A DNA stretch of 64,000 nt from an uncultured Planctomycetia bacterium (GCA_964572255.1 CAZNEE010000002.1:210942-274941), one strand, 5' to 3'. Positions 11,717 to 64,000 are shown, counted from the first letter of the stretch. The notes: generated from the letters alone by a model not told the origin. Translations and numbers: made by a program.

Positions 11717-11795
11717 TGGTCGGGACGGCCGGATTCGAACCGGCGACCCCTAGTCCCCCAGACTAGTGCGCTAAGCCAGACTGCGCTACGTCCCG
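11717..11795 (-). tRNA. tRNA-Pro (anticodon GGG), 79 nt with encoded CCA
   Basis: Minus-strand sequence CGGGACG-TA-GCGC-AGTCTGGCTTA-GCGC-A-CTAGT-CTGGGGG-ACTAG-GGGTC-GCCGG-TTCGAAT-CCGGC-CGTCCCG-A-CCA folds as a cloverleaf: 7-bp acceptor stem with C1:G72 (a proline identity feature), 4-bp D stem, 5-bp anticodon stem, 7-nt loop with U33-GGG-G37, 5-nt variable loop and a GTTCGAATC T-loop. It starts 2 nt after the gpsA stop codon. Confidence 0.9.
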
Positions 11796-39723: not shown

Positions 39724-42700
39724 TTAAGCAGATTCTACAAACTTTTTCAGGTTCGCGTAACGCTGGATAAGTTCCTGTTTGTCGTACTTCTCAGGCGGAT
39801 CTAACAGCGAAAAGATCAAAACTCTGGCTTCATCGGAATTTTCCGCTTTTATGTTAAGATCCTCAAGCATCGCCTTGGGCATCATTTTTAAAACGTGGTT
39901 ATTGCGCTTAAGGTAGTAATAATTCAAAAGCGCCAATGTAACTATTTCAGCAAGCGGATAATATACGTTTGAGAAAGAATATTCCCCGCTTGAGCTTTCA
40001 TTAATGTATGTAGCATATACGTTTTCATTGGATTCCATCCTCTCAAGATCTCCCCTTCCATCGGCTAATGAGAATACGAAAATTTCCGAATTTTTCTCCT
40101 TTATATATCCTTCAAGTTTTTTGGGGAGTTCTTTGGTCCGTCCCTCCTCAATGATCAGATTTTCAAGGAACGTCTTGAATTTTTTATCTTTCTTAAGTTC
40201 GTCAAAGATCTCCATGAGTTTAGCGCTTTGCCATCCGCCTATTTTTTCATCAAAAGCAAGCACCACTTTCTTTCCGCTTAAAAGCATCGAACGGACCGCT
40301 TCGCCTAGATTCCACCCCAACTCTTCAGGAACCCTGAGATCCCGAAGGATCCCCACATTCTCCTCTTCCACATTTTTCTCTTTTATTGGCGGGCTTTGTA
40401 CTTGTGGGGTGTCCCTTCGAGGACCGTCCCCGAGTTCGGTTAAGCTTTTACACATCTTTTCACTTGTGGTATAAAACCGCACAATTGCCTGCTGTTTTCT
40501 ACTCTCTCTGTTCCTCTGCCATTCTTCCAAAAGTTTGTCGTCTTTATATATGCGGCAATTAATTCCACGTAATTGAGTAAAATCTAAAACCCCTAGCAAG
40601 TCCTGATCTGAGACCTCTCTCCCTGTCCTGATAAAATTATCGATCAGATCAAGGGGCAAAATGATCTCAAAATCCCCATCTTTGGAAGCATCGCATAAAC
40701 CTCTTATCGCTTTTTCTATGCATCCGCCGTAATCTGAAATAGTGTAAAAATAATAACCGCTTATAATGACCCTTTTTATTCCGTCCAGTTTACTCCTAAG
40801 GATCTTTTCAGCATATCCATGCAGATCATCGGGATTTATACTTTGCGAGATATCAATGATTTCTCTTAAAATATTCTGTCGTGTCAATTTGCCCTTTACA
40901 CTTTTTTCCTTTTCTTTCTTTTTTTCATCAGTAAATCCATGAACATTCATCCAAAGAACCTGGTCGTTACCTATTTTTACTGGTGAGGTCTGTGCTTGTG
41001 GGGTGTCCCTTCGAGGACCGTCCCCAAGTCCGGTGATAGGCAGGCGGATAATAAAATTCGTCCATTTGCCGGGTTTGCTTTCGACGTCGATAGTGCCTCC
41101 GCAGCGTTTTTCTATATTTTCCTTCGCTATTGCAAGACCCAAACCGGTACCGTTAGGTTTGGTTGTAACGTAAGGATCGAATATCCTTCCTATCACATCA
41201 GATGGTATGCCTTCCGAGTTATCCCATAGAGAAATTTCCACGAACTTTCCTCCGCCGGTGACATAGGTTTTTACGATAAAAAAGCGTTTTTCTTCGGGCA
41301 AAGCCATTAAAACATGATAGGCATTCATCATGATATTCAATAGCGCACGCGACAATGCGGCTTCGTCAGTATTTATTAACACGTCTTTTTTGCCAAATTC
41401 TGTTTGTAAAACATAATCTTTACATCCCGAAAAATGTAAAGTTGACCTAATAACTGAATCCAGGCTCACTTCCCTCTTCTCGCGCCTGGATAAAGGTAAA
41501 AGTTCCGCCAGGATATTCTTGGCCAAAGTTAATGAATTGACAACATTTGTCACGAAAAAATCCTTCTCTTTCTTTGTCTTTTCCCTGTCAGGCAATCTGT
41601 CAAAGAGATCATTTAAAGTATCCTCCAAATGTTCATGCCCGAAAACACTCTGCGCTTTTTTCGCGATCTTCATGGCTTTTGCTGTAAGTACTCTATAATC
41701 TTTTTCCTTATAACTTTCTTCAGTAAATTCAACGACTTCATCGGAAAAAGACATTATTTCCTCGAATGAGGCGTCAGAAAATCCGTGTTTTTCAAAGGTA
41801 TTTTCCGGATAGGCAAGAGCGTTTAAACAATTTTTTACGTCATGCAATACGCCGCTTAAATTTTTAAGCACCGCAATACCCGTTCTATCCCCGGGAGTCA
41901 GTTCCCTCTCCTTGTCCAGGACCATCTCATCGGACAACACCTTGATCAGCTGAAGATAATATTTAAGTCCGGCCGGTATTTTTTCCCGATTCGCGGTGAA
42001 TCCCGGACCCAGTTTATTGATCTCTGACTGCAGGCGACCGGTATCATATTCGCCTACTACCGGGCTAAAGATCAGTTGAGGAAGAATTAATATGTTGCCG
42101 ATAGATGAAACCGCGCCTTCCGCCCCTGCTTTAAGCGCTCCAGCGATCTGGCTTTCATCGCCCTGAAAAGTCCTTATGACTTTTGCATAACTCTCTAAGA
42201 GGTTCAGATCTCCCGAGCTGTCTTTTACTGCGATTATCCTGTTTTTGAGCTCTTGAACAATTTTCGGTTGGATATTACGCCCTTTAACTTTATGGATTGC
42301 CGGGTTATTGTAAAGCACTAACGGCAAGGAAGACTTGACTTTTTTCATGTGCTCGGATATTTCACCATTACTTTTCAGGTAATATAAAGGGGCTAAAACG
42401 ATTGCATTAATATGCGGAAACTCCTCTATTTCCTTAATATTTTGAAGCGTTTCTCTTTCTGTATCGCCTGTTACATTGGCAAAGATAACAAGCCTTCCCC
42501 TTGATTCTTCAGCGAATATTTCTATAGCTTCCAGTCTTTTTTTGTTGGAAAGATCCGTAAATTCGCCCGTTGATCCCATAACAAGTATTGATTTAACGCG
42601 GTTTGATATCAGGTAGTTGATAAGTTGTCTTATCCCGGTTCTATCTATCTCGATCGTTCCGTCTTTTTCCATAAACGGCGTGACAACTGGAACTATGTTC

Positions 42701-45700
42701 TGGTTATAAACTAACTTTGCTTTTGCGGCTCTTTTTTCTATGGAAGTGGGCCTGGTGCCGAGGGAATCAAGGATTGATAAAGGATCCTCCCCGCTAAGCG
42801 GCGGACTTAAGTCGGTTGCTCTATATATTATCACTCCTTTATCCGTAACGCTTCTTTCAGCGAACCCAAGGTAAACCAATGTTCCCAGATCGCGTTTCAC
42901 CACATCAAGTGAAAGATGCCCATCGGCCGCTCTTCCCTTTGTCTTCTTCCTGATCGAATCTGCGGACACCCGCCTGTCCTTGAAATTTTTCTGCATGATG
43001 TTGTAGATCCCAAGCGGCGACCCGTCGGGTTTAGCCGGGTCTTTTTCGCCATCAGAAGATGACGCATCGTCGCTTTCTTTTGCCAAAGCGCCGAGTATTT
43101 TATCCTTCTCCGGATAATTTGCCGCATCAAGCAGGATCAAAGCAAGTTTTTGATCCTTATGTCCGAATACCGCGCTGATAATGGCTTTCTTGACTTCATG
43201 CCATTCGCCGGCACTGGCATGTTCTATGACAGCCGCGCTTAAAGAGCCTTCCGGGAAGATATGCCACTTGATCTGGTCGGCCATTTCATTGACGATGTCC
43301 TGAAATTCCTTGTATGCCGCGGGGTTATTTCTGAAATATTCCTTGAGCTGTCTCATCAGCTGATGGACTTTTCCCAATGAAGATCCGTTAGAGGTATATT
43401 GAAGCCCCGCGCCTGTCTCAGGGAACAGATTGGGAATGTCTTCCCTGCTGATCCTGAACCTATTTATCAAAAATTTCATGATCCTGCTCTTATTGTCCAG
43501 GTATATCTTCTTCAATCCTTCATCCATTACGCCGTATTCTTCAAGCAGGCCTGCTACACCCGTTACCAAGAGAAAGTTCCTCTCAATATCAAGCTCAAAA
43601 AGGTTTACTTCCCGCTCCATGAGAAAACTTTTATCATCCGAATACGAAACTATCAGTGAAGCGAACACGCTGTGAAAAAAACTTGTCTGCGCGCCTTTCC
43701 TTGGACCGTCCAGGATCTTTCCGGTCCAGGCATCTACGCCCGGCCTTCTGGCTACCCCCGGAAAAAGCGCCGCCTTTGAATCGACATTTTTATAGTCCGC
43801 CACGGACGGAACGATACGCAATTTATGCGGAAGAAAACAGAAAAAAAGACAAACCGATAAAAATGAGGCTTCCTTCAGGTAATCGCCGTCAAAATTCAAT
43901 GTATAATCGTACTGGTGTTTTATTATCCCCATCCGGAACAATTTATTCACCATCAGTGAGAATATGGGATAAACGGTCGGGGGCACCTTGAGGAAGTAAT
44001 CCCTTCTTCCCTTAAACCCGGATTTATCCATCGCATGCTCTGTTTTTACATTGGAGAAATAATTGGTCAGGATCACCCCCTCTATCGCATCTTCAAAAAT
44101 GATCCCTGCCCTGCCCACCTTGACCTGCATGTCCATCCCCATGGCGGGATACTGCCTTGAGATGCTTTCGACCGCTCTTAAGGCCGGGATGACTTCATTC
44201 CGGATCTGCTCCATGAATTCACCGGTAGCCGTATGATTTATCACTTCGTCAAAAATAAGCAGTTTAATATAAGCTTGCGTTCCCGAGGCCAGGCCTTCCA
44301 GGTCCAGATCTTCAAAGATCTCATTTGTCCTGATGAACTCTTCGGCATATTCTTCGTATATTTTTCCGATTATTAAAACAGCGTCTTTGCGTTCATCGGA
44401 ATTCATCAGTTCCGAAAGTATGTCGCGAAGCACCCTGTACACGTTTAAAGGATAGACATTTCTCTTGTTTAAAAGGCTTATTGCCAGGCTCAAGACTGAC
44501 TGCTGTTTGATCTTGCCTTCAAATTCCGAAAGGATCTCGGCCAGGTTGTCGATATCCCTTCTCGTGCCGTACGAATCGATCAATCCGTGGGTCGCGGCGG
44601 TTTTATCCGGCGGACTTACGATCCTGTCGATCAACCCTTTTTTGATGCGAATAAACCCTTCCAGAACATCTTCTATCGCCAATAGCCGGTCGTGCCTGTT
44701 TGATTGCCTTTGTATTATTTCCCTGAAAAACCTTTTATCGTTAATATCGACAAGTTCCGCCTCTTTGGTCTTGGTCGGAAATTGACGGAATATTTTCCGT
44801 AATGTCTGAAAAGCGTATGACGGATAGATGCCCGCTCCCGCCAGCGCTATTCCCGTCGCGAACACCATCTCGCGCACTTCGGGATCGGAAACATCTTCCA
44901 GCAGGTCATAAAGCGTTTCAAACGCCCAAGACAGATCCATATCTTTTTCGACTAATGCCTTGGCGAATTCGTAGACATAATAACGCGGATAAAGCGAACC
45001 GATCACCCTGGATGTTTTTTTCGACTGAAAAGATCTTTTGGCCAGCGCCAGCAATTCATCTTCTTTCTTCTCTTCGGTTTTCACCCTGTAAGGGCCCAAA
45101 CGATCCTCATCAAGCCATTCGACCTTTACCCTGAATCCGGCCAAAGGATTGTCTGTCTTTTTTAACGAAACGGTATTGGCTCTTTCCGATATGAATTCAA
45201 ATCCATTTGCCGCGAAAAGCCGGCCGAACCCCGTATCCTCGAATTTGACGCCTTCCGCAAGGCTTTTTACCGTCAGATCATGCCTTACCCTGAACGTGAC
45301 CGTGGCGCCGTACGGGATATAACTTGATATGAATTCATTTATCGCCAGGGCCACCGTATCACCTTCAAAATTTTTTCCCAAACATTTCAGGTAAATCCTG
45401 ATATATTCTTCGTCATCTTCGAGCTGAAGCTTTTCAGCTTCCCTTAAGATCAATTCCACCTGTTTTCCATGCACACTATCGTTCTCCACAAGGCGATTAT
45501 AATATCCGTATAATGCGTCGTAAAAAGGCAGCATTCTGCTTATGAACCCGCCTTTTCGGTATTTTTCAAAATCCCCTATTAACTCGGGATAATTCAAAGT
45601 GCCGCCCCAGCCCAATATGAATAAATTATCCTCGGCGATCTGCATTTCCAGGAAACCCGCCAGGATACTCCTGCCGCTGAAGGTATCCTCGAAATAGACC

Positions 45701-47838
45701 TTTAAATCGAGATGTTTGCGGTTTACATGATCTTTTTCGGCGGCGCGTTCAACCTCGAGCCGGTATTGTCCCATGGGGAATTTACTGCTCTTAAAATAGA
45801 ACGGACCTTTGGCTTCGAGCAATTTTCCTTCATCAAGAATATTTCCCTGGCCTGAGTCGCCGGGGTCATGATCATTTTTATCCTTACCCCGTCCCTTTAT
45901 AAGAGGTGCCGCGACAATCATCATTAAAATAGGTATTAGAACTGTCGCGATTAACGAAAACTTAAATATTCCGAATAACATAAATATCCCGCCGGATACA
46001 CCCGCAACGCCAAAAAGAAAAGTAATCATGGCGGAACCTTTTTCTGATCCTCCCGGCTTATTATTATCTTCCTGTTTTGCCTTATTTCTTCTTTCTTTCT
46101 CACGCTCTATTTCTTCCTGCCGGATCTTCCTGAAAGCCTCTTCAAGGCCCATTGCCTCTTTTTTCTTGGCAGCCGCCCGCTTCTGTTCTTTTTTCTCTTT
46201 TTTCCTCAGTCCTCTTTCGATCCTTTTCTTTCTGGCCTCATAAAATGCGCTGATGATCTCGCCGGGCTCCTTACCCAAATCCTTCTTCTCCCAATTAAGC
46301 ACATCCTCCAGAGCGCTTAAACTATATGCTTTGGATATGCCCGTGACAATACTGGCCGCATGCCTCCATTTGGCAGCCATGTCATGCGCCTTTGCCGTAA
46401 GTCCTCCCCGCTCTATGTATTTTGCCAGGACCTCAGAATTTATGATCTTCAGCTTTTCGAAGGCCCTTTCAAATTCTCTTTTGCTTACATAACATAAAAG
46501 AAGTTTTATAAAGCCGGGTAAAATGTGCCGCGCATGGTCCTTGCTCTCCTCAAAATAAAGCTTTATCAAAGTTACGGCATTATCGAACATCCTATCCGCC
46601 CTATCAAAATAACTTTGCTGGACAAAAATATAAGCAAGGCGTGTGTTAACTCTTACAACATGCCCTATGGCCGCATCCCTTACCTCTTTGATGTCTCCAT
46701 ATCTGATCAACAGTTCAAACGCCGCCTTTGCCGTGTTCTCTGCCTTGTCCAGATACACCTTGTCCTTCTCTTTCAGCCATTTATTACGGAAAGGGTACGC
46801 CAGTCGATCATATGTTTTTATCAAATGCTGGATATCTTCGACGGTTTCGTCCGGTTCAGCGGGATCCCCAGGCTTGATATCCCTGTATCTGGTCAATATC
46901 TCAAATGAGTTGTTTGCCGCGGATTCCGCCTTGATCAAATATGTATCATCCTCTCCGGCTACCCATTTATTGAGGAAAGTATGCGCCAGGGCATTGTAGT
47001 TTCCTATGATATACTGAATATTTTTGGCGGAAACTTTCGATCTGTCAAAACTTTCCATAAGCATGTCTGACGTTCTTGCAACACGTAGAGCTTCAGCGAT
47101 ATTCCCTATATTAAGGAAAACGTTCGCTAATTCGTTATGGAGAGATACTGCCCGATCAATATGCCGCCCGATCACTTCCGGTGTTCTATCCCGAAAATCC
47201 TCTAATATCCCGACCAGGATATCGCTTGACTGTTTTGCTTTATAAAATTTGCCTTTGGAAAGATGCTCCTCCATCTGTGTCAGTAGCTCGACGATGTCTT
47301 CCTCTATTTCTTTACTATCATACTTATTGATGGTTCTATCTGTTGCGTTTTTCTCTTCAAAAATTTCCTGCGCGTTATCTTCTTCTCTTTCAGCTTCTCT
47401 TCTTATCGACACGGCATTTTCATCGTCAGGATCTATCAGCGCTTCGTACTGCCATGAATATTTTTGATCATTCCCGATATCATACTCAATGGTGCAGGGA
47501 ACTCTTAATTTTCCCTGATCTTCACCCTTTTCATCAAAACGCAGGTGAAGCATTACATCTTTGCCGTTATGGGTGAAAACCGGGAACAGATGATCTCTGG
47601 CATCCCTAATATTAAAACTGTTCTTTTTGAGGGATTTCATAAGGCCCCTTAAATGGAATTCAATGAGAGCTTTGTGTCCGATCGCAGGATAAACTAAGGG
47701 ATTGGATACGCTCTGGACCTGAAGAGAATATTTCCTCCCGGAAGCAAGATCAGGATCCGCCCAGAGGATATTCTGGCAAGAGAACGTGATCACAAGCAGG
47801 ATCGCTATGATTTTTACGAATATTTTTCTTCTTCCCAT
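39724..47838 (-). CDS. Giant mosaic membrane protein (2704 aa): signal peptide, helical TPR/Sel1-like repeats, Lys/Glu-rich coiled coil, 2-TM hairpin, DapA/N-acetylneuraminate-lyase-family aldolase domain, histidine-kinase-type ATPase (HATPase_c) domain, and tandem C-terminal modules separated by a GDGPRRDTPQ linker
   Basis: One uninterrupted 8115-nt ORF. N-terminus MGRRKIFVKIIAILLVITFSCQNILWA is signal-peptide-like. TM hairpin MITFLFGVAGVSGGIFMLFGIFKFSLIATVLIPILMMIVAAPLI sits at ~45890-46030. Aldolase domain IVPVVTPFMEKDGTIEIDRTGIRQLINYLISNRVKSILVMGSTGEF...VLYNNPA...IIAVKDSSGD at ~41850-42740. ATPase N, G1 and G2 boxes LLNIMMNAYHV / WDNSEGIP / GTGLGLAIA at ~41040-41400. Separated from the downstream giant gene by 4 nt. 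Confidence 0.85.
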   Translation of the reverse strand: MGRRKIFVKIIAILLVITFSCQNILWADPDLASGRKYSLQVQSVSNPLVYPAIGHKALIEFHLRGLMKSLKKNSFNIRDARDHLFPVFTHNGKDVMLHLRFDEKGEDQGKLRVPCTIEYDIGNDQKYSWQYEALIDPDDENAVSIRREAEREEDNAQEIFEEKNATDRTINKYDSKEIEEDIVELLTQMEEHLSKGKFYKAKQSSDILVGILEDFRDRTPEVIGRHIDRAVSLHNELANVFLNIGNIAEALRVARTSDMLMESFDRSKVSAKNIQYIIGNYNALAHTFLNKWVAGEDDTYLIKAESAANNSFEILTRYRDIKPGDPAEPDETVEDIQHLIKTYDRLAYPFRNKWLKEKDKVYLDKAENTAKAAFELLIRYGDIKEVRDAAIGHVVRVNTRLAYIFVQQSYFDRADRMFDNAVTLIKLYFEESKDHARHILPGFIKLLLCYVSKREFERAFEKLKIINSEVLAKYIERGGLTAKAHDMAAKWRHAASIVTGISKAYSLSALEDVLNWEKKDLGKEPGEIISAFYEARKKRIERGLRKKEKKEQKRAAAKKKEAMGLEEAFRKIRQEEIEREKERRNKAKQEDNNKPGGSEKGSAMITFLFGVAGVSGGIFMLFGIFKFSLIATVLIPILMMIVAAPLIKGRGKDKNDHDPGDSGQGNILDEGKLLEAKGPFYFKSSKFPMGQYRLEVERAAEKDHVNRKHLDLKVYFEDTFSGRSILAGFLEMQIAEDNLFILGWGGTLNYPELIGDFEKYRKGGFISRMLPFYDALYGYYNRLVENDSVHGKQVELILREAEKLQLEDDEEYIRIYLKCLGKNFEGDTVALAINEFISSYIPYGATVTFRVRHDLTVKSLAEGVKFEDTGFGRLFAANGFEFISERANTVSLKKTDNPLAGFRVKVEWLDEDRLGPYRVKTEEKKEDELLALAKRSFQSKKTSRVIGSLYPRYYVYEFAKALVEKDMDLSWAFETLYDLLEDVSDPEVREMVFATGIALAGAGIYPSYAFQTLRKIFRQFPTKTKEAELVDINDKRFFREIIQRQSNRHDRLLAIEDVLEGFIRIKKGLIDRIVSPPDKTAATHGLIDSYGTRRDIDNLAEILSEFEGKIKQQSVLSLAISLLNKRNVYPLNVYRVLRDILSELMNSDERKDAVLIIGKIYEEYAEEFIRTNEIFEDLDLEGLASGTQAYIKLLIFDEVINHTATGEFMEQIRNEVIPALRAVESISRQYPAMGMDMQVKVGRAGIIFEDAIEGVILTNYFSNVKTEHAMDKSGFKGRRDYFLKVPPTVYPIFSLMVNKLFRMGIIKHQYDYTLNFDGDYLKEASFLSVCLFFCFLPHKLRIVPSVADYKNVDSKAALFPGVARRPGVDAWTGKILDGPRKGAQTSFFHSVFASLIVSYSDDKSFLMEREVNLFELDIERNFLLVTGVAGLLEEYGVMDEGLKKIYLDNKSRIMKFLINRFRISREDIPNLFPETGAGLQYTSNGSSLGKVHQLMRQLKEYFRNNPAAYKEFQDIVNEMADQIKWHIFPEGSLSAAVIEHASAGEWHEVKKAIISAVFGHKDQKLALILLDAANYPEKDKILGALAKESDDASSSDGEKDPAKPDGSPLGIYNIMQKNFKDRRVSADSIRKKTKGRAADGHLSLDVVKRDLGTLVYLGFAERSVTDKGVIIYRATDLSPPLSGEDPLSILDSLGTRPTSIEKRAAKAKLVYNQNIVPVVTPFMEKDGTIEIDRTGIRQLINYLISNRVKSILVMGSTGEFTDLSNKKRLEAIEIFAEESRGRLVIFANVTGDTERETLQNIKEIEEFPHINAIVLAPLYYLKSNGEISEHMKKVKSSLPLVLYNNPAIHKVKGRNIQPKIVQELKNRIIAVKDSSGDLNLLESYAKVIRTFQGDESQIAGALKAGAEGAVSSIGNILILPQLIFSPVVGEYDTGRLQSEINKLGPGFTANREKIPAGLKYYLQLIKVLSDEMVLDKERELTPGDRTGIAVLKNLSGVLHDVKNCLNALAYPENTFEKHGFSDASFEEIMSFSDEVVEFTEESYKEKDYRVLTAKAMKIAKKAQSVFGHEHLEDTLNDLFDRLPDREKTKKEKDFFVTNVVNSLTLAKNILAELLPLSRREKREVSLDSVIRSTLHFSGCKDYVLQTEFGKKDVLINTDEAALSRALLNIMMNAYHVLMALPEEKRFFIVKTYVTGGGKFVEISLWDNSEGIPSDVIGRIFDPYVTTKPNGTGLGLAIAKENIEKRCGGTIDVESKPGKWTNFIIRLPITGLGDGPRRDTPQAQTSPVKIGNDQVLWMNVHGFTDEKKKEKEKSVKGKLTRQNILREIIDISQSINPDDLHGYAEKILRSKLDGIKRVIISGYYFYTISDYGGCIEKAIRGLCDASKDGDFEIILPLDLIDNFIRTGREVSDQDLLGVLDFTQLRGINCRIYKDDKLLEEWQRNRESRKQQAIVRFYTTSEKMCKSLTELGDGPRRDTPQVQSPPIKEKNVEEENVGILRDLRVPEELGWNLGEAVRSMLLSGKKVVLAFDEKIGGWQSAKLMEIFDELKKDKKFKTFLENLIIEEGRTKELPKKLEGYIKEKNSEIFVFSLADGRGDLERMESNENVYATYINESSSGEYSFSNVYYPLAEIVTLALLNYYYLKRNNHVLKMMPKAMLEDLNIKAENSDEARVLIFSLLDPPEKYDKQELIQRYANLKKFVESA
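40386..40439. repeat. Copy 1 of a ~54-nt direct repeat (31-nt identical core CTTGTGGGGTGTCCCTTCGAGGACCGTCCCC) inside the 2704-aa gene; it encodes the linker LGDGPRRDTPQ
   Basis: About 48 of 54 nt are identical to the copy at ~40981-41034 (~595 nt upstream on the plus strand), and both copies are in the coding frame. Coordinates are ±2 nt. Confidence 0.7.
40981..41034. repeat. Copy 2 of the ~54-nt direct repeat inside the 2704-aa gene (encodes TGLGDGPRRDTPQAQTSP)
   Basis: See copy 1; the repeats flank a ~190-aa module that appears duplicated in tandem at the C-terminus of the protein. Confidence 0.7.
41040..41400 (-). other. Histidine-kinase-like ATPase (HATPase_c / GHKL) domain in the 2704-aa protein, preceded by a possible degenerate DHp helix containing His (FGHEHLEDTLNDL)
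   Basis: N box LLNIMMNAYHVL, D/G1 box ISLWDNSEGIP, G2 box KPNGTGLGLAIAKEN and a C-terminal GGTIDVESKPGKWTNFIIRLP; boundaries approximate. Confidence 0.6.
41850..42740 (-). other. DapA/NAL-family class I aldolase (dihydrodipicolinate synthase-like) domain embedded in the 2704-aa protein
   Basis: VTPF...DG.ID...LI..L...V..I.V.GSTGE (compare GTTGE), YNNPA (compare the E. coli DapA Tyr133 loop YNVP) and a Schiff-base lysine in IIAVKDSSGD (compare IVGIKEA); boundaries approximate. Confidence 0.6.
46550..47250 (-). other. Four or more tandem ~68-aa alpha-helical repeats (TPR/Sel1-like) in the N-terminal exported part of the 2704-aa protein
   Basis: Recurring units ...NYNALAHTFLNKWVAGEDDTYLIKAESAANNSFEILTRYRDIK... 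/ ...TYDRLAYPFRNKWLKEKDKVYLDKAENTAKAAFELLIRYGDIK... / ...NTRLAYIFVQQSYFDRADRMFDNAVTLIKLY...; boundaries approximate. Confidence 0.5.
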
Positions 47839-47842
47839 AGTC

Positions 47843-50800
47843 TTACGCGTTGGTCTTTAAGTACTCCGCTATCGCCATGTATTCTACCGTCCCGGCTGTG
47901 ATCTGCTCGGCATCCGGAATACCTAATTTAATAGTTATAATGCCTCCCGTTTTGCACCTGTTCGCAGTTTCATCCCAGCATAAAGCAAGCAGTTCATCCG
48001 CACTTAGCCGGCTCATGTCTATATTAGGAATCGATCGATAAAACTCCGCTAACTCTTCCTTATCGAATTCCAATAGCCTGTACCGCGCCAGTGAGAATAG
48101 AACGATCTCTAACAATGGATAATAAGAATCCATTCCCAGATCTTTATCATTAATTTTTGTTATGACAGAATCCGTATACGGCTTTAGACACTCGAATTCT
48201 TCATCAAGCGCTATAACTATCAGATCTTCATTCTTTACATGTTTTTGGTCTTTCATGTAATCGAGTGTCATTTCGGTGATATCGCCGGTATGGATCACGA
48301 TATTCTCCAGCCATTCCTTTAAGAGCGGGTCTTCGCTGCGCATAAGGTCGCTTAAAGCTTTCCTCACCTCATCCGCTCTTCCGTTGCCCAATCTTTTATC
48401 AATTAAAATACCGACTCTTTCCTTCTTCTGGTAAACCGCACTTTTTACCTTGGCCGCTAAGTCCTCTCCTTCCGCAATAGATCCCGGAGATATCCTTGAA
48501 CTGGCTATGAACATGCTGTTCGTAAGCCGGGGAACGGCTTTTCTTATGCTGTCCATGATCAGGTCTTTATCTGATCTTTCAATATCCGTAACTTCTTCTT
48601 CGATCAGTTCTTCAAAAGTTCCGTCAGGATGACTTATGAATATCCTGTCCCTGCCGTTCACCTTAGCTCTGTACAGGGCCTTATCGGCTCTTGTTACAAT
48701 GGGATCGATCGCTTCCTGTTCCATCTTGTTAAGCAAACTACTGTTCGCATTTTTTTCTTCCTCCGTTTCAAATGAACTTTCTTTTTCTTCTTTCTCCCTG
48801 ATCCCTCTTATAAAACTTTCCTTCTCCTTGTCCGTAAGCTGGGCTATACCCATACTCCATGAAATATCAATATCCCTGACTATTTCCTTTCCTTCTTCAT
48901 CAACAGTTGTTCCCTGGATCTCAATACTGCGTACGGTATTCAATATTTTTTCCGCCGCTTTTTTGACTTTGTCCAATTCATCAAATATTATTATCAGAAA
49001 TTCCTCTCCGCCGTATCTTATGAAGAAATCGGTCCCTCTTTTAAGCTCATCATCAACTACTGACGCGATCGCCTGGAGCACCTCATCCCCCTTGGGATGT
49101 CCGTATGTATCGTTCACGCCTTTAAAATGATCGATATCGCACATGATAGCGCACATCGGGGTGGGGTTCTGCGATCCCTTCTCTTCATCTCTTCGCTCGA
49201 AAGCGCGTATATAGCCCGGGATCTCATTAATAAGGTATCTTCTGTTATGCAGATCGGTCAATTCGTCTCTGAGAGTTTCTTCTTCTAATCTGCGGCTCTT
49301 TTCCTCAAGCTTTTTCTGCAGCTGTTTTAGCTCGGTAATATCAGTGAAAACTCCCAGCACGCCGTTTCCCAGACGCTCTTTACTTACCTGTACATGAATG
49401 GTTTCTCCCTCTCTTACGTTTGTCTCTTCCACGGATATGGCTGTATTATTCTGATAAACTCTCAAGTCATCGGCTTCATATTTTTCAGCATCATAAGATT
49501 TCCCTAGTTCAAATTTGTCTCTGATCTCGATATCGGTTAACCCCTCGACCTTTTGAGTTTCCGGATCCAGCCCCAACATGCTGTAAAACCTGGAATTCGC
49601 ATATTTCACGCGCATTTTTCTGCCGTCAAATTCTTTATAGAACACAGCCGCGGGTAAATTTTCCAGCATTGCGCCTATATACTCTTCTCCCTTTTTTATC
49701 TCCTCCATCGCCTGGATCAATTTTGTTATATCTCTAAATGATGTCAGGACTATAGTTTTGCCGTCCTTTATTATCGTGTCATCGGTTTTTGCATAGATGA
49801 TGGTGCCGTCTTTCTTTACATATCTTCTGCCTTCTTCCCTTTGCGGAACATCTTCCCCCCTTAGACGCGCTTCAAAACGTCTTCTCGCGTCTTCAACCTC
49901 ATCGGTATGCATAAAATCAAAGATCTCTTTGCCGATAATCTCATCCTCATCATATCCCATCAATTCACACCAATATCTGTTAACCTGCTTGATTATGCCT
50001 TTTTTTCTGCCGTCTTCTTCTGTAACCTCTAACACGTGGAACCCGATCGGGGAATTATCATAGAACTCTTTATATTGTTTTTCGGAAGCCATAAGCTCTC
50101 TATTTACTTCATCGAGATCTCTTGCTGCGGATCTTAATTTGTTCAGGACCCTCTGGCCGAGAACGCCTGCTATTACAAAAACAATTAAACACGCCGCCCG
50201 CAACGCAAGATTGTATATATCCGTTAAAGGAAGTAATCCCTCAAGGATATCTCCCTTATAAAAGAGATATGCGTCCCCGATAGACCTAACAGCCCAGTAC
50301 AATGCTCCAAAAATAATAGCGGCATATTTAATGCTTGATACTTTAGGCACCGCCCCTATCTCCGTAAACTGCCTTTTGTCGGAAACAAAACGCCCCTTAA
50401 CCTCTATGCCTTTTATAAGCCTCGTGAACGCTTCGTTGCCTTCTTCGGATTTTCTGTCCTGCAAACCATGTGTAAGTTTTTGGCCGCCAAAACCAAGAAC
50501 TATCTCGTTGTACTCAATAAGATTGAATTCAGATTTGTTAAGTCTTTCCGGAGGAAGATTCTTTTTAAGATAGGATATGAACTCGGCCGCTGTATAGTGT
50601 TTCCCCAGTTTCTTTTTTGCCTCATGGGCCAACAGCCTTACGCTGCTGCCGGCACCTCTTAAGAATTGATGAGGGTGAATGTCGAATTTTACCAGATCAC
50701 CATATTCATCTATCATATCGAAAGATTCCGGCACATGATATTTTTTAAGATAATCGATAATATCGTCGGCTTCACTATCCGGATCCAGATCGCCCTCTAT

Positions 50801-53800
50801 TTTTGCTTTTTTGACTGATTCTGACAGGCGGGAATAGAACTGTTCTCTCTCTTCATGGAAAAGCGCATGTTGGTTCTCAGATAAGGATTGTATCAGATAC
50901 ACTTTCTCGCTATTAGCAAACCCTCGTATATTCTCATTGTCCTCCAATATTTTTATTTTTTCTCCGCCTGATGCCGCCAGATCCGTTTCTATTATTTTCA
51001 CTCTTGCCTCTCGGCCGTCTTTTGTATAAAGCGGCTCGCCAACAGCATTATAAAAAGCAAGAATGGTCCCCTCTTCTTCCTCTTTTCCTATGATCCCTTC
51101 GGTTATCTGATCCGCTGCTTCCTTATCGCGGAAAAGTTTTCCTATCAGGCCTCCCGTTTCTTCATCCGGGGCCGGCCGCTTTGATAAAACATTTTTCTTC
51201 GCAGCTCTATCCTTGAACCAGTCAATAAGCACTTTTATGCCGGAGATCGGCCATAAGAGCGCGATCGGAAGGAGAATGGCCACAGAAGCAACAAAGGCAA
51301 TAAAAGGATTGGATTTTACATAATCCGCAATACCCGCATACTCTATAATATATTCAAAAACTTCGGCCGAAGTATCGGGCGCGAACCAGCATATGGCAGC
51401 GCTGATGATCATCCCCAAAGTCGCGGCCATGAAATGCCTTCTGTTAAGCATTTTTCTGTACTTCTGCACGTATTCCTCTTTATACGCGTTGGTCTCTCTG
51501 CCCTCCGCCAGATTTCCGATATCTTCCGCTAATTCTTCGGCTGAATAACGCTCTCTTGGGTTCAATTTCAGGCACTTCATTATAACGGCCTGGAGGTTAA
51601 GGCTGATCTTGCTGTTTATTTCTTTGGGAAGTTTCGGAGGATCGAATTTAAGCATGATAAAATCATCCGTAAGTTCGTTCGCGAAAGGTTTTTCGCCCGT
51701 AGCCATCTCATAAAGAAGTATTCCCAACGAGAAGATGTCCACCTTGTATTCTTCCGCGGGTTCTTCCCTGTAATCAATGTACGGAATACCGTGTTTATGC
51801 AGGAATTTGATTATCCGCCTCTTGTAAGACTCATCGGATTCCATGGGTTTTTCGGTCACTGCGAGCGTGACCGACTGTTCGGGCGAGGCATATTCCGGAG
51901 TTCCCAAAAATATATTCTCCATCGTGTCCCTTATGGACCCCGTCTTCTTTATGTCATACCCCCTTGCCGCCAGACCCAGGTCGGCAATGAGCGGCTGATA
52001 CTCGGTAGCTGTATTCAATGCGGCAACCCGTCTCATCAGGACGTTCATCGGCTTCAGGTCCCTGTGGATGATACCCAACGAATGCATATAAGCGATCGAA
52101 TCCGCTATATGCCTGAACAGGCCCACGACCTCTCTCTCGTCATATTTCCTGTACTTAAGACTCTCGATATAATCCCCGAGGGTCGGGCCTTCGATCATTT
52201 CCATGGAATAGAAGGGAATGTTGTGTTTCTTGCGGTCATATACATCGTGTACTTTGATGATCCCTTTATGCGACAGCTCTCTCATATACCTTATCTCTCT
52301 CAGGAACCTTTCCCTCTGCCTCTGGCCGCCCTGTTTCATGACTTTAAGGGCTATGGTCCTGCCCATTTCCCTGTCAAAAACAAGAAAAACGGAACACATG
52401 CCCCCGCTGCCGATCTCCTTGATGATTTCATATCTGTCCTCAAAGACGTCCCCGCTTTTCAGGCCCGTGTTTATATACGCGTTATCCAGTTTTGAAGAGG
52501 ATGCGCTGTCGGGGATCTCCTTCTCCTGAAAAGCCGCAAATAAGGTCCCTCCCAAAACAGTTTTATCGCTGAGATAAGATTTGGACGAGATGTTCTTAAA
52601 TAATTCCAATACTGATCCCTGGCGCGCGTAATCGAGTATTCCCCTTCTTCTTATCGTGCACCAATCCAAAAGCCTCTTCTCGTTCTCCGTCGGCCTTGGC
52701 TTATTTTTCAGCCTTGCGATGTCCAGCTTTAATATATCGTCCATGATCAATATATTGCAGGCATGGGCTTCCTTGTCCACCCATACCTTGTTGAAATCGA
52801 TCGCATTCCCGAGGAACAAGATCGACTCATGCGGAAGCGTTATAAGTCTCGAAAGAAGTTCTTCTCTCCCTTTAATATCATGTCCTGCAGCGGCGTGTTC
52901 CAGCTGTTTCGCGCCGAAAATATTTATCTTAACCTTGAGCGGGTCGTATCCAAGATCCGGGAATATCTTCTTTACGGTTTCCCTGTCAAGTTCATAAGAT
53001 GCAAATTCCCTCTCCCCGTCCGCAATAACGTCTATCTGGAGATCATCCGCCGACCTATCAAGCCAGAAATAACTGCCGGAAGTATAGACCCTGAATGCCT
53101 CTTCATTATTTATCAGTTCATTTTCGATCAGGCGCGGGATAACAACCTCTTCTATTCCCTCTGCCATATATCCTATTCTGTCCTCTACATCCTTCAGGGA
53201 CAAAGGTTCAGTGTTCTGTCCTCTTTTATTTGAGAATTCCACAAGACGCAGCCAGTTTTCCATAGAACCCGATTTATCCGCAGCTTTGAGGCTGTCCATT
53301 ATCGCTGTGCGCGGCCATGATGTCACAACTCTTTGCTCTTGAGGGTCTACCCCCAATCTGTACGGCTTATGATACTTGCCTAAGAGAATATCGGGGCCGT
53401 TGAGGACATATCTTAATGCTTTTTGAAGTTCACCTTTATATAAGGTGTTGGGTTTTTTCGGGTCCTGGATCTGGTCATCCCTGTCGGGATAATTCTCGCG
53501 GAAATGGTCCTGAAGAAGAACGATCGTTCTGTAATGGCCCAGGATGGAACAAAGGATCTCATGAAGCAGGTATTCGTCTACCAAGGGATGTGTGTCGTTT
53601 TCCGGCGGGCCGCGCTGCTTTAATTTGGAAATTACATCTGTTGCCACGTAAAGCTCGTTATCGTCTTTAAGATGATCTCCGTTGCCCAGCATAAAATCAT
53701 TCTCGGCTTTGACGATAATGGAATCAAACCCGTATATCTTGATCTGTTCCTTTCTTTGTTCCGCTAAAAATCCCGCCAATTTCTCTCTTTTATAGTCCGG

Positions 53801-56800
53801 GATCTTGATACCGTTTTCCCGCAGGAACTCGTCCAGATTTGAGCTGTCCTTTCTGTTTCTCTTGAACTGCCTGAAAAATTCAATAAACCTCCCTATCTTA
53901 TCCTTGGGCAGTTTTATCTCATTTCCCTGAAGGAACGCGGTCAACATCCTTTCCTCGTCCTTCTTGTTCTTTAAGAGGTCCCTGATCCTCTTGATCTCGC
54001 TTATCTCGCCTTCGGTCAGCCTCTTCACCCGCTTAGAGCGGTAGCCTTCATGCGCCATCTTCTCTTCCTTGTCCAGGAAGGATTCAAGGAGCTGAAGTAT
54101 CCGGTCGTTATAATCGTCCGTGACATCGTTCTTTCTGATCCTTTCACGTTCCCGATCGAATATATTCTTTGAAGCTTTTCCCTGGCTGATAAAACCGTCC
54201 GGAGTTGTTTTTGAAACTTCGAAAATGGTCACCGTTATCTTGTTCCCCCTAACTTCACTGTCAAAGGTTTCTTCCTTGCCATGCGAAAATCTCATTCCGT
54301 CTCTCCAGCTTTCCACCAATAAAGTTACATCCTTATAATCTTTAGCGATACGGCTGAGCCTCAATAGAAATATCCCCCTTAATTCGACAGGGATAGATAT
54401 TTCCGATAATATTTTTTCAGATTCGGTATTGCGCAGTATGCCGCCGTTGAATATCCTGTAAAGTTCCATTTTAGACGGACCTTCGTCTTCAGATATTATC
54501 CGTATGCCCGGCCTGGAATCTGACCTTCTTCTGACCGCCTGGAGTTTTATTGAAAAATCAACATCCTTATGATTGCCCCACACATGATCACGCAAATTCT
54601 TATTTAGCTCATAGATCACATGCCGGGCAAGTTCCTCCCTGTTTGTGGGAGTTCTTTTGACACTGAAAAATATCTCGTATTCTGTTTTAAAGCTTTCTTT
54701 CTCTTCGAAATCAAACTTCGAAATAAACTTTTTTAATTCACCAAAAGAGTCCTGATCATTATTTACCATGTTCTCTTTACTTAATGTAAATGTTTCAAGA
54801 ATTTCTATATCCTCCCCCTCATCTTGTTTCTCTTTATCCTGAGGCTGTTCTTTTGGTTTTGACTTTTTCTTTAAGATCCATACTGCGATTAAAAACCCTA
54901 TGATCGGCAATAAGAACCCGGCATCGAAATTGACCTTTTGACCCCCCATGAAACAGCCGCCTGAATGATGTGAATGGTCACCTTCGCCCGGAGCTTTGCC
55001 CACATGGACAGTCCCGGGATAATATGAATAATCTCCGTCAGTCTGCCCGTCAGGCATCTCTGTCCTGATAGCCAGATCATAATTTCCCGAATACATGTCA
55101 GACGGAATGTTTATGATGATCGAGGATGTCGATACGCCCGGCACAAAGAATTCTTCCGATCCTATCATGATCGTGTAGCCGTCGGCTGAACCCTGCAGGG
55201 ATCCGGTGTATGGATCCCAGGTAAGCTCAAAAGTCCTGTCATTGTTGCTGGCTGTGACGCTTGTGATCTCGGGCGAGAAAGGCCTCGCATCCGTTGACTC
55301 CGCCCAATGCCGGATAGAATCAGCATTAGCATCAGATATTATAAAGCCCATATCATCCTGCCAGAAAAGCCCGCCATCCACTCCGCTGGCGTATATTGCG
55401 GAATATTTATCCCCAAAATTTGTAGGCTCAAGTTCTCCAAAAATGACCGGCCCGTCAAGCGACGAACCCCAGTTCGTCAAAGGATCCGCTATCGGGAACC
55501 AAACCTCCATATAATCATAATAATGCGGCTGGTAAAGATCCAGGCCCAGATCGGTCCAGTTGTCCATGAGCGTTTCCCTGTTCCTCGCGCCCACTGTGAC
55601 CACTGACCCCGGATCCTGATTATGTATCATCTGAACATGCAGATCCAGAAATCCGTGCACTTGCGCCATCGTCAGAGATGTCAATTCCGGTATCTCTTCG
55701 GGTTCGCTCATCACGTCCCAGGCGACTATTTCCGGACGGTCCGCGTAATCATTGACGAATTGTGCCATTAAGGCAAGTATTGCGTTGATCTTCGCGGGTT
55801 CACTTATTATGTCCGGATGTTCTCCCACAGGATTAGGGCCTTCCATGTCGATGCCGTCCGCGATCAAATAATCGTATAATACCGGCATCAATCTTATACC
55901 CAGAACATTGGCGGCTTCGATCAGGGTATCCATGTCTTCATAAACATGGGCGCTAAAGCCCGTAGGTGTACCTGTTCCGTCAAAAACTATTCCGCTTCTT
56001 AGATCACAGAATAAAAACACTCTCACAGTACAGCCCTTGAAACGATTAAGCTCCTGCAGGAGCAGTTCTCTTCTGGTAGCTAAACCTACATAATCCTCGC
56101 CATTGGCCCCGTCCCCGATATCGTAGCCGTATTCTATCCACAGGTTCGCTCCGCGGGCAAAATCAGAACCGGGCGTTAAGTTCTCGATGATCTGCTGAAC
56201 ATGATCGATCCTTTCAAGCCTTCCGTCAGTGTGATAAATAAGGGTTTCGGTCAGATCCCAGGAAGCGTCATATTCAAATGTACGGACCGTTCCGTCCTCC
56301 AAACGTTCGGTATTCAGATACATCCTCCCGTTAGCTAGATGGTAAGAAGCGCCTGCCTTATTGGTGTATTTCCTTATCGCAAACCCCGGCGTAGCTGTCT
56401 CCTGTACGACCGTTTCATGCACAAATGTCGGATCTCCCCCCGCATCATATCCCCTGATAAAGTGAATAATATCCGTGCCCGCGTAATATTCAGGTTCCTC
56501 GTAACTGCCATCAGGCCATGTTATCCTGTCGATCCTGCCGGACGTTCCGTTGCCGTAGAAATCAAAATCCTCTCTATGCACCACTGTATCAGCCAGGTAG
56601 TCATCCAGCTCATAATCAGGCGTATCGTGGTCCCAATCCTCCAAATATGTCTCTGTTTCGATAAAGCCGGACGGTGAATAGTACGTGTAATCGACCTCCG
56701 CGGCCGCAAGGACCTTGAACGGAAATAAAAGGAAAAGTACGGTGACGAGAAGCATTTTCGTGCCCGAATTCCTGAATGCCCTAAAGACCGCCTTAAAAAT

Positions 56801-59800
56801 GTTCCCTATCAATCGAAATGTCTTGGAAACTGATCTTGATAAAATCCCTGTAACCTTAAATACAAAGACCGCCGGGTAATACCATTTGAACAGGAAAATC
56901 TTATTGGCGAACATGGTCGTTGTGCGGATCTTTCCGTCCGGCTTCTCTATCGGAAATACGCATATATCGTTCGCAATGATCTCTATTGCCGCGTTGACCC
57001 TTATGTATTCCTTGGTTTTCCTGTCCTTGAACATATTCGCGTTGATCGCAAAATTCCATTTCCTGTATTTCCTTTGAATATCATCCTTTTTGAACGGATC
57101 AGGCTCCTCCAGCCACTCCTTGAGATATCTTTTGGCGGCGAATATCCTGCGTATAAGCCTTATATTGGGAATTAAAAGGATCAACGCCCCCACTCCTATT
57201 ATAAAGAGGAAAGATGAAAGCATGGACCACGCACCCGAACCTGCAATTAAAAACGGCGCTGAAAATAAATATCTATAATTCATCTTATTGAGCCTCGCCA
57301 TCTGCTTAAGGACCTTTTCATCCTTCTCATCCAGCGAATAATCTGCGGCCAGGGCTTTTATTAATTCCCTTTTCTCGCTTTGTTTAAGGTTCGCAAAATT
57401 TCCTTTATCTTTAAATCCTTCCATGACAGCATAAGTCTCATTTTTCAGCGTGCCTTTGCGCGCTATATACTCGAAATCGACCGTATCGATTATAAGTAAC
57501 AGGTCCTGCGCGGCTTTGAATAAAGGATTAGTGATAGGTTCTTTTGAAGTGGGTTCTTTCTTTGTCGTTTCTAAAAAGACTGCCATGAAAAAAGGAGCAA
57601 AATATCTGTAATAGTCGGGTGATCCCCTGACTATGTTTGCTTTTGCTTCGAAATCTTCATATGTTGAATTAAATGCCTGCATCTTGGCATCGCTGCCGCC
57701 TTTTCCTTTCGATCTTAGGTCAAGGTATCTGTCCCTGTAATCCGCCATGAGTTTGGATAATCCTTGCGCGTCTTCACACTTCCTCTTTATATAGTGCGCA
57801 AACGCAAGAGCCTGATCTTTGCTCTCCCGGGCTATCCTTTTATTCGGATGATTGATCTTATTCAGATGTTCCGGCATGCCCAGAGCGGCCTGCCTGACCT
57901 TTCTGAACTCGGGCTCTCTGACCCAGTAGGAATATGCTATCGCCTGGGCCGCGCCAGAGACGGTTATCCTTCCGGCCTTTTTCAATGTTATGAAAGGCCT
58001 GTTCGTGATCCAGCGTTCGTTGTTCTCGATCGCTTTTATCATGTCTTCAGCCAACCGCTTGAATTCCCTGTTTCTGCGATCGGTGCTCTCCCTCAATTCT
58101 TTTCTTACAAATTTAGAGTCATTATTGCGTATGCTTCCTGCCGCTTCCTGTCTTTCTCTGAGAAGTTCACCGGCATGTTTTAACACTCTTTTCGCTTTTT
58201 CTGCCAATCCTATTTCAAGTAATTCGCAGGCGGCTTTGATATATATGATCGCGAGCACCTTGACCTTTAAAGGCGATCTCTCGAGATCCTCTATGCATGA
58301 CTTTAAAGTGTTTACAAATCTTCTTTCAGTCTTTCTTCTTAATCTGACCTGCTCTCTTAAGTCCTGCATGCCGGGCAGGAAGGTATGTTTAGCTTCTTCC
58401 CGGGACTTCTTCTCTCTTTTGTCTATATACTCGGTTATCTCGGAGATCTTTTCCCTTATTCTCGGAATATTTATTTTTTCTTCATCTAATTCATAATCGA
58501 TCCTTTCGTCATACCCCCTGTAGACCTGCCATAAAAGAAAGTATCTCGCTCCCTGGTGTCCCGGATGAGCGTATCTTCGCCCGTCCTTAGGATAATATTT
58601 TTGAAAAATGTAAAAGGGCGACCATCCCTTCCAGATCTTCTTGCCGTCTTTTGCCTCATCAAAAACCCTTTTAGGGAGCCTGATCTTCTTCAGCCTTCGG
58701 GGCCTTGCTATCCTTTTCTTAAGAAGGGCAACCTGTTCGCCGGCTATCCTGTTAAGAATATCTCTGACCTTCTTATACGCTTTTGAATCTTCGTAGTTCT
58801 TTAGGTCTTCCGCCTCTTCGACCAGTTTTACCACTTCATCAAAATCCGCTTTTATCAATTTAGCGAAAGCGGGTATTCTTGCAACCGGCTGGTTTTTCTC
58901 TTTCTTTCTGTCCGTTTTTACATCCCCGGCAATTTCGTCAATATCTTGCTTCGCTGAAGCTGTCGCTTCCTTTACTTCTTCTAATAATTCCCCCAATCTC
59001 TTTTCATGTTTTCTGATCCGTCCCTGCAGATACTCTTCACGATATCTTTCATGCTTGATCCTCCATTTCAGAAGTCTTATTTTCTTCTGCAGTTCGATCC
59101 TTTCTGAGATCTTCACGTAAAGTTGGGTATGATACTCAAAGATCGTGATGAATAGATCGTTGTCTACCGGTTCTTCCCTATATAATCTTTCCATGTAGTT
59201 ATAGGGGATTTCTCTTTTTAGCTGTTCGCTTGAGACAGGAGGTTCTGACCTCCCGTAATTATTTTCATTCGCTGCATTGTTCCCCCCGGCGAAAAATTGG
59301 CATATAATAAAGAGGAAGGATAGAACAAGGGCGGGTATCATAAACCTGCCCACCGCACCTTCAGGCAAAGAACCGCTAGTAAATATTGAAGCGGCAAAAA
59401 CTGTTAAAAATCCCAAAACTCCTATGTAACTAAAACCTTTATCGGCTCTTTGCTGCTCTATTTTTTCTTCAATATTCCTTATATAAGGCTCCAATTCGGG
59501 AGCGATATCCCCTCCCAGGCTGACTATAAAATTACGTAAATGGCTCTCCAGCTTTTCTCCCGAATATTTCGGCAGTTCTTCCAAGAGGGCGATCCTGAAA
59601 TTGATATAACTCTTATGAACCACCCGTGTTATTTCCGCCATGAAAGCGGCTATCCTGTCTTTTTTCACATCATCCAAAGGCGTGCTTTTCAGAAGATCCC
59701 TGAATGCCTTGATCAATTTTTTCTCTTTTTCCGGGGACGGAAGGGTTTTGTTCGTCTTCTCTATATCGTCGTAAAAAGACTTCCATTCGGGGCCCAGTTC

Positions 59801-63898: not shown

Positions 63899-64000
63899 TG
63901 TTTCAAGATACAGCGTTTTATTCAGCTCTTTAACTTTCCGTATTAAACGAAGATTGTGATTCAGCGCGTTAACGATAACTACTTCAAGAGGAAGTGTTAT

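Follow-up and report, generated by a model that had tools for sequence, protein, structure and literature searches.

A predicted Hanks-type kinase and a predicted PAS-PAS-GGDEF cyclase on one giant membrane protein of an Omnitrophota bacterium

The giant gene and its reading frame

A gene for a giant membrane protein, which carries a Hanks-type serine/threonine (Ser/Thr) kinase domain and a PAS-PAS-GGDEF diguanylate cyclase module on the same chain, was analyzed in a 64,000-nucleotide (nt) stretch of DNA (GCA_964572255.1, CAZNEE010000002.1:210942-274941), the whole of which is hereinafter referred to as the window. Residues are given in the numbering of the open reading frame (ORF) within the window, in which residue 1 is the GTG at 63898; full-length numbering equals window numbering plus 1026. 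The following features of the giant gene, from the kinase domain to the C-terminus, were identified (aa, amino acids; PDB, Protein Data Bank).

47843..64000, minus strand: window part of the giant ORF, 5385 codons plus stop, with no stop codon up to base 64000
51449..52432, minus strand: Hanks-type Ser/Thr kinase domain, window aa 3823-4150 (Pfam, PDB matches, motif and subfamily alignment)
51245..51433, minus strand: hydrophobic hairpin 1, window aa 4156-4174 and approximately 4196-4218 (hydropathy, charge counts)
50423..51169, minus strand: conserved domain without assigned function, window aa 4244-4492, hereafter the loop domain (homologues in Omnitrophota proteins)
50144..50359, minus strand: hydrophobic hairpin 2, window aa approximately 4514-4546 (weak) and 4564-4585 (hydropathy)
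49721..50005, minus strand: PAS domain 1, window aa 4632-4726 (Pfam PAS_9, 2.7e-16)
49325..49666, minus strand: PAS domain 2, window aa 4745-4858 (Pfam PAS_4, 3.5e-10, and PAS_8)
48644..49270, minus strand: GGDEF domain, window aa 4877-5085 (Pfam, PDB matches, motifs)
47846..48643, minus strand: C-terminal tail of 266 aa without detectable relatives

The giant gene is called at 6377 aa on the 498,635-bp ENA contig k141_130128, and P0250 of the representative library is the full protein, in which the window translation recurs without a difference, shifted by 1026 residues; the start codon lies approximately 3.0 kb outside the window edge. An earlier note, made from the window sequence, had listed a length of 5351 aa because the ORF count began at the first in-window GTG. 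That length was an artefact of the window edge, as the frame is open at base 64000 and the real protein is the 6377-aa product. ORF lengths close to the window ends, including 63899-64000 (minus strand), are lower bounds. An exact 43-mer from the window edge, aimed at the N-terminus, found no match among metagenome contigs.

Coding potential was evaluated in blocks of 200 codons with a log-likelihood score of codon usage, for which 27 housekeeping genes of the window served as the training set. In 27 of 27 blocks, including the kinase-GGDEF interval, only the open frame scored above zero, the other two frames being negative; the values amounted to 0.15-0.29 in the giant ORF compared with 0.18-0.37 in the housekeeping genes. 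The open frame and the uniform coding signal show that a single genuine coding frame holds both enzymes, which bears out the earlier proposal that they form one polypeptide: the frame is continuous between them, with no stop or frameshift, and the same product occurs in public assemblies. It is extremely improbable that the two domains come from different genes joined in an assembly chimera or a decaying pseudogene. Assembly errors are a known risk for giant genes, and the source consists of metagenome assemblies. Nevertheless, more than 19 kb of the frame is free of stop codons in a genome of 44% GC, and codon usage is of the coding type in all blocks, like that of the neighboring housekeeping genes. 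Further, the 6377-aa product was found on 4 contigs and in the records of four sources and the neighboring gene on six contigs, five of which were 0.2-1 Mb in length, and the giant gene stands in a syntenic housekeeping context on a single strand.

Kinase domain

Pfam Pkinase was matched with 153 bits (cutoff 31.7; 1.3e-44) at aa 3823-4007 and over a second stretch. The motifs GSGGMCSV (3830), K3852 (in ALK), E3868, and HRDLKPMN (3945-3952) were present, followed by DLG (3973), GTPEYASPE (3999-4007), the helix-F aspartate D4054, and the subdomain XI arginine R4115. These motifs match column for column those of PknB from Staphylococcus aureus (4eqm, 6e-28) and Mycobacterium tuberculosis (approximately 1e-24). 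The earlier description of a kinase with all catalytic residues and DLG in place of DFG was thus confirmed by the alignment to PknB, in which the motif set is complete, and from this full catalytic set the kinase is predicted to be active. DLG is a tolerated variant of DFG; active TGF-beta type I receptor kinases have it natively, and of the two nearest kinase relatives one has it as well.

Two inserts interrupt the domain, one of 8 aa past the catalytic loop and the other of approximately 38 aa between SPE and helix F. These family-specific inserts recur in the nearest kinase relatives, all of which are annotated as Omnitrophota. The subfamily is confined to large proteins of Omnitrophota (window 51740-51877, minus strand; P0267, P0290, and P0401), and its variable post-SPE insert ends in the conserved motif EPxExYKxD[IV]FS[LF]G; AVIMKCLxxNPRxRY is a second signature of the subfamily. 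In the relatives, the subfamily kinases are usually followed by transmembrane (TM) segments and then by long HEAT-repeat arrays.

PAS-PAS-GGDEF module and C-terminal tail

A coiled linker leads from PAS domain 2 into the GGDEF domain, for which Pfam GGDEF scored 97 bits (cutoff 23.8; 1.3e-27) at aa 4877-5027. The last GGDEF helix, at approximately aa 5057-5085, stands behind an acidic insert of approximately 50 aa and was recovered as the C-terminal piece of the Pfam match. The cyclase motifs comprised DIDHFKGVND (4921-4930), the guanine-reading GD (4937-4938), GGEEF (4963-4967), and a C-terminal K/R pair. The inhibitory site (I-site) RGTD (4954-4957) is followed by FFIRY and then by GGEEF, a spacing of exactly five residues. 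Solved cyclases, including 6hbz (6e-19), WspR, and PleD (3.8e-16), were matched column for column, and the GGDEF domain is predicted to be active. The two PAS domains and the GGDEF domain with intact GGEEF and RxxD I-site, as proposed in the earlier note, were therefore recovered both by Pfam matches and by motifs aligned to PleD and WspR. For the 266-aa tail behind the domain, no Pfam, PDB, or phmmer match other than the giant itself was found.

Loop domain and hydrophobic hairpins

The loop domain between the kinase and the PAS domains comprises approximately 250 aa, in which the motifs HE, H, RGxG, and QDR are invariant. Copies were identified in P0253 (one, aa 158-374) and P0251 (two, aa 2680-2914 and 3525-3729). 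The domain was found only in large proteins of Omnitrophota and is duplicated in some of them. On the kinase side it is preceded by hairpin 1, in which an acidic loop of 21 aa connects the two segments and the outer flanks are K/R-rich, with 6 K/R versus 2 D/E on each side; on the PAS side it is followed by hairpin 2, whose counterpart in P0253 is stronger.

The charge pattern of hairpin 1 places the region of approximately 310 aa between the hairpins in the cytoplasm. The first loop-domain copy of P0251 lies within 2860 residues without hydrophobic segments, alongside PAS-GGDEF, HATPase_c, and a cytidylate-kinase-like domain, which also points to the cytoplasm. The loop domain is thus most likely cytoplasmic. 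The region had been described as a TM-flanked, sensor-like loop; the hydrophobic flanks stand, but they are two hairpins (2+2 segments), not single spans, and the domain between them is probably a cytoplasmic one and not an extracytoplasmic sensor.

No Pfam (E<=1) or PDB relative of the loop domain was detected, and the word-index protein search returned no match to it. A metagenome contig scan with the module alignment A2 yielded only generic PAS-GGDEF proteins, none of which extended over the loop domain. AlphaFold2 prediction from a four-sequence alignment gave a mean predicted local distance difference test (pLDDT) score of 47.7, an unusable model. A reading of the domain as an HExxH-type metalloprotease was rejected, the spacing being right in only one of the four copies.

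Distribution of the kinase-GGDEF pairing

To examine whether the pairing is conserved, 1.84 billion representatives were searched exhaustively by HMMER with a query of 1200 residues running from the kinase through the GGDEF domain. Besides the protein itself, nothing highly similar across both domains was returned. In a fusion survey, in which the best 150 representatives and 120 word-index matches were scanned separately for each domain, only two other proteins had both: P0388 (885 aa, GGDEF-Pkinase) and P0108 (Couchioplanes caeruleus BG844_37250, Pkinase-AAA_16-GAF-GGDEF). The word-index protein search with the C-terminal region gave no match over more than 29% of the query and did not return the source protein; this index may omit very long proteins, a bias against giant relatives. 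Among the matches listed in a contig scan with the C-terminal 1535 aa, which were dominated by generic GGDEF proteins, four loci (L011, L018, L038, and L081) were considered as fusions and rejected, because their kinase and GGDEF domains are encoded by separate neighboring ORFs.

In the nearest relatives, which include entries annotated by NCBI as 'serine/threonine-protein kinase, partial [Candidatus Omnitrophota bacterium]', the pairing was not kept. The kinases of P0267 (38% identity) and of P0290 and P0401 (36-39% identity) are followed by TM segments and HEAT arrays, and P0401 contained no GGDEF or PAS domain in the 3559 residues past its kinase, as judged by phmmer and a purpose-built GGDEF profile; P0267 and P0401 have the kinase without GGDEF. 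On the cyclase side, the block consisting of the loop domain, the two TM segments of hairpin 2, and PAS-PAS-GGDEF aligns to P0253 as a single stretch (31% identity over 889 aa, E 7e-88); past this block P0253 has HEAT repeats, and upstream of it the sequence is cut. P0251, a 4964-aa protein that starts with a leader and is encoded on a 98.9-kb contig, is probably complete and contains PAS-GGDEF and two loop-domain copies in a different order, without a kinase. The modules therefore assort independently among the relatives, within the limit that several relatives are contig-length fragments.

Whole-protein anatomy, topology, and possible processing

Over all 6377 aa, Pfam identified only Pkinase, PAS, and GGDEF, and searches of the unannotated segments at E<=1 gave nothing credible. 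Upstream of the kinase, a glycoside hydrolase family 5 (GH5)-like domain and two hydrophobic segments were distinguished.

56699..56755, minus strand: internal hydrophobic segment, window aa 2382-2400, MLLVTVLFLLFPFKVLAAA/EV, signal-peptide-like with an AxA site (hydropathy); with the AxA site, 56690..56755, window aa 2382-2403, KMLLVTVLFLLFPFKVLAAA/EV
55328..56161, minus strand: GH5-like (beta-mannanase-like) domain, window aa approximately 2580-2857 (phmmer against PDB)
54872..54928, minus strand: TM segment, window aa 2991-3009, followed by KKKSKPK (hydropathy, flanking charge)

The GH5-like domain was seen only by PDB sequence search (4oou, 1.4e-8; 3vup, 5.9e-6; 2c0h, 3e-5), with no match in Pfam, and both catalytic glutamates align (SEPE, acid/base; GELEP, nucleophile). 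It is bracketed by the hydrophobic segments at aa 2382-2400 and 2991-3009 and is probably extracytoplasmic. We infer that the AxA segment, which lies 3408 residues into the full protein, is the in-to-out crossing before this domain and that the TM segment at aa 2991-3009 is the out-to-in crossing, everything downstream being cytoplasmic. The AxA segment may be a processing site; a gene for signal peptidase I is located at 16117-16713.

The hydropathy scan gave approximately 14-15 hydrophobic segments, mostly paired, and the whole topology was deduced from segment parity. Since the kinase and the cyclase require ATP and GTP, both were set in the cytoplasm, and the glycosidase was set outside. 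The GH5-like domain and the kinase are separated by one TM segment with a strongly basic C-terminal flank; the kinase and PAS-GGDEF are separated by an even number of hydrophobic segments with biased charge. Under this model, the chain would begin with a leader, followed by a very large part outside the cytoplasm that dips into the membrane at three hairpins, and would continue with a TM segment, approximately 140 cytoplasmic residues, a second TM segment, and the GH5-like ectodomain. The TM segment with KKKSKPK would then lead into approximately 2340 cytoplasmic residues anchored by two helical hairpins. Published work has judged topology predictions for Omnitrophota giant proteins to be unreliable.

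The N-terminus of the giant, MIYSNKNKTFKLVIRVIAAITLMCFISYDIVWAYP, is a signal-like leader. The leader pattern ...[DN]I.WA.P is common to P0250 (aa 1-36), P0251 (aa 1-36), and the 2704-aa protein encoded next to the giant (47749-47838, minus strand); a basic start and a hydrophobic core are followed by DIVWAYP, NILWADP, or DIAWAHP. The shared leader may be a lineage-specific signal peptide or a sorting motif for long proteins.

Published work has proposed that Omnitrophota giants are processed to yield smaller polypeptides. If the present protein were processed, by proteolysis or by internal initiation of translation, the kinase and the cyclase could end up on different mature polypeptides and the fusion would exist at the gene level only. 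The signal-peptide-like AxA segment at aa 2382-2403, the WA/xP motif of the leaders, which resembles a signal-peptidase site, and the signal peptidase I gene in the window are in line with such a possibility; however, the AxA site lies approximately 1400 residues upstream of the kinase, so that a cut there leaves kinase and cyclase together. Between the kinase and PAS-GGDEF, no candidate cleavage site and no convincing internal promoter or start was found, the sites returned by a promoter and terminator scan inside the giant gene were not above chance, and Pfam detected no protease domain in the giant. We therefore consider separation by processing to be quite unlikely.

Neighboring genes and source organism

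The gene immediately downstream of the giant encodes another long protein.

39724..47838, minus strand: 2704-aa gene (ORF list), with the junction TAA-GACT-ATG, starting 4 nt past the stop codon of the giant

The 2704-aa protein has an N-terminal leader, a DHDPS-like domain of the dihydrodipicolinate synthase family (aa 1715-1970), and HATPase_c (aa 2158-2268; Pfam); HisKA was not detected in it. Its gene is probably in the operon of the giant and translationally coupled to it. A metabolic-enzyme fold inside a large membrane protein is odd, yet typical of the long proteins of Omnitrophota. Downstream of the giant, the 2704-aa gene is accompanied by cinA, a LigT-like gene, and recA, and no PilZ gene was present among the larger window ORFs scanned.

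The genes of the window included valS, a leuA-like gene, the thr and trp operons, the his operon, lepA, der, alaS, recA, cinA, and the LigT-like gene. Over 1-64000, all identified genes are on the minus strand and GC skew is negative in every 2-kb bin (-0.09 to -0.26), a pattern consistent with one long co-directional replichore segment. A gene for tRNA-Pro(GGG) is located at 11717-11795. RecA of the window was 75-84% identical to dozens of Candidatus Omnitrophota proteins, including those of Makaraimicrobium, Tantalella, and Aadella; all named best matches of RecA belonged to Candidatus Omnitrophota, and the relatives of the signalling modules were annotated likewise. Judged by these sequence affinities, the source organism is an Omnitrophota bacterium.

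Functional interpretation

On balance, we consider it probable that the giant is a membrane scaffold for two signalling modules that work autonomously in the cytoplasm and were joined by the module shuffling typical of Omnitrophota giant genes. The cyclase would be governed by its own PAS domains, dimerising via PAS and linker helices, and would be product-inhibited at the RxxD I-site. The kinase would autophosphorylate its Ser/Thr-containing activation loop and would phosphorylate substrates. The shared chain would reflect domain shuffling in the giant genes of Omnitrophota, not a dedicated relay from kinase to cyclase.

Direct cross-talk between the two signalling systems, or control of the cyclase by autophosphorylation, had been suggested in the earlier note. 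Such a dedicated relay in cis, in which the kinase would phosphorylate its own linker, the loop domain, or PAS-GGDEF and thereby switch the cyclase, appears unlikely. Kinase and cyclase share a chain and, by the inferred topology, a compartment, both are predicted to be active, and Thr/Ser residues are present in the activation loop; but approximately 470 residues and four hydrophobic segments lie between the kinase and PAS-GGDEF, and no FHA or other phospho-binding domain was matched by Pfam anywhere in the giant. Ser/Thr phosphorylation controls cyclases elsewhere, as in DgcB (PMC6733907) and SiaABCD (PMC7647112), and independent kinase-GGDEF fusions in other phyla suggest a useful pairing. 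Here, in contrast, the pairing is absent in the nearest relatives of both the kinase and the GGDEF block, and the cyclase comes with PAS sensors and an I-site of its own. Since the context is a 6377-aa mosaic, co-residence of the two domains on a chain with many unrelated modules is weak evidence of functional coupling. The suggested cross-talk was thus not supported. Both the processing of the chain and an artefact of assembly are less likely than autonomous modules or a relay in cis.

Several points weigh against the reading as autonomous modules. The fusion survey covered the best 150 representatives and was not exhaustive. Both P0253 and P0267 are truncated by the contig ends on either side; a kinase may still lie upstream of the P0253 block and a GGDEF domain may still lie beyond the PAS domain at the cut end of P0267. 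The membrane model was built from a crude hydropathy scan with the positive-inside rule; of the four hydrophobic segments between kinase and PAS, number three is weak (1.2), and the K/R-rich flanks of the three N-terminal hairpins oppose an extracytoplasmic N-terminal half.

A bolder version of coupling, which we regard as a long shot, is that the giant acts as a receptor: a signal would cross the membrane, the kinase would phosphorylate the same chain and gate PAS-PAS-GGDEF, and surface contact would set the level of cyclic di-GMP (c-di-GMP) in an ultra-small episymbiotic or predatory bacterium via one polypeptide. If gating in cis were true, the giant would be a compact example of eukaryotic-like phosphorylation feeding c-di-GMP signalling and would open a first way to the function of the cytoplasmic regions of Omnitrophota giants. 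The present value is descriptive: a Hanks-type kinase subfamily and a conserved block of loop domain and PAS-PAS-GGDEF are added to the catalogue of shuffled modules. In mosaic giants, the occurrence of two domains on one chain calls for comparative support before a functional coupling is read into it.

Comparison with known systems

Giant proteins of Omnitrophota have been described as mostly unannotated mosaics with many TM segments and sparse, divergent enzyme domains, with GGDEF and HATPase_c among the most common (10.1101/2023.11.21.568195), and glycoside hydrolases and embedded metabolic-enzyme domains have been found in them. A signal-transduction module has also been described for Omnitrophota long proteins (10.64898/2026.06.07.730766). 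The present giant resembles these proteins ('Archaeovorins', West-Roberts et al., 2023; 'giant ORFs', Seymour et al., 2023; 'multi-enzyme' long proteins, Nielsen and Lui, 2026) in its phylum, its many TM segments and long unannotated stretches, its signal-like leader, its shuffled modules, and the scattered divergent GGDEF, HATPase_c, and glycoside hydrolase domains. A Hanks-type kinase domain was not mentioned in the searchable text on Omnitrophota giant proteins.

The giant shares with the 'Archaeovorins' (West-Roberts et al., 2023) that it is Omnitrophota-encoded and has numerous TM regions by the hydropathy scan. It matches the Omnitrophota style but departs from the 'Archaeovorins' in three respects, namely length, a divergent SecA_DEAD with its accompanying domain set, and the small PilZ genes that stand directly downstream of 'Archaeovorin' genes. 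'Archaeovorins' have at least 30,000 aa (gene of more than 90 kb) versus 6377 aa here, and Pfam identified no SecA_DEAD, C39/S8 peptidase, glycosyltransferase, methyltransferase, or NUDIX domain in the giant. The gene is also smaller than the 'giant ORFs' of more than 20 kb (Seymour et al., 2023).

Among membrane kinases, those of the PknB/PrkC/Stk1 type were the best solved-structure matches; all catalytic motifs are common to them and the giant, and membrane segments follow the kinase domain in both. They differ in that the kinase of the giant begins 4848 residues into the protein and is not N-terminal, and in its two family-specific inserts. Unlike PASTA-type PknB/PrkC kinases, which have extracellular PASTA repeats behind a single TM segment, the giant gave no Pfam match to PASTA. 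Cyclases of the PleD/WspR type share with it GGEEF, DxDxFKxxND, the guanine-reading Asn and Asp, and RxxD at five residues, and PAS-GGDEF cyclases share the helical linker from PAS. In contrast to the PleD/WspR type, the input of the giant is PAS and not a receiver domain, and the giant has the acidic insert of approximately 50 aa before the last helix and the 266-aa tail.

Control of a cyclase by Ser/Thr phosphorylation is known from DgcB (FHA-GGDEF) of Bdellovibrio, a predatory bacterium (PMC6733907), and from SiaABCD of Pseudomonas aeruginosa (PMC7647112). In both, the kinase is encoded separately and a phospho-reader takes part, namely the FHA domain in DgcB and the partner protein SiaC in SiaABCD, whereas the giant is without a reader domain and has the kinase on the same chain.

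The closest precedents are proteins with both domains. Clostridium thermocellum has a kinase-6xTPR-GGDEF protein of 1826 aa, in connection with which shared signalling was already speculated upon (Krupa and Srinivasan, 2005; PMC1262709), and P0108 and P0388 are further cases; no biochemical characterization of the known kinase-GGDEF fusions was found in the literature searched. The combination is thus rare, as the earlier note had held when it called the single chain unusual, but it is not new, and the novelty had been overstated. In the C. thermocellum and Couchioplanes fusions, as in the giant, the kinase comes first on one chain and sensor or scaffold domains stand between it and GGDEF. Those fusions, however, make up a whole soluble protein of approximately 1800 aa with TPR or AAA_16-GAF linkers, whereas in the giant the two domains occupy the C-terminal quarter of a 6377-aa membrane protein and are linked by two hairpins, the loop domain, and two PAS domains.

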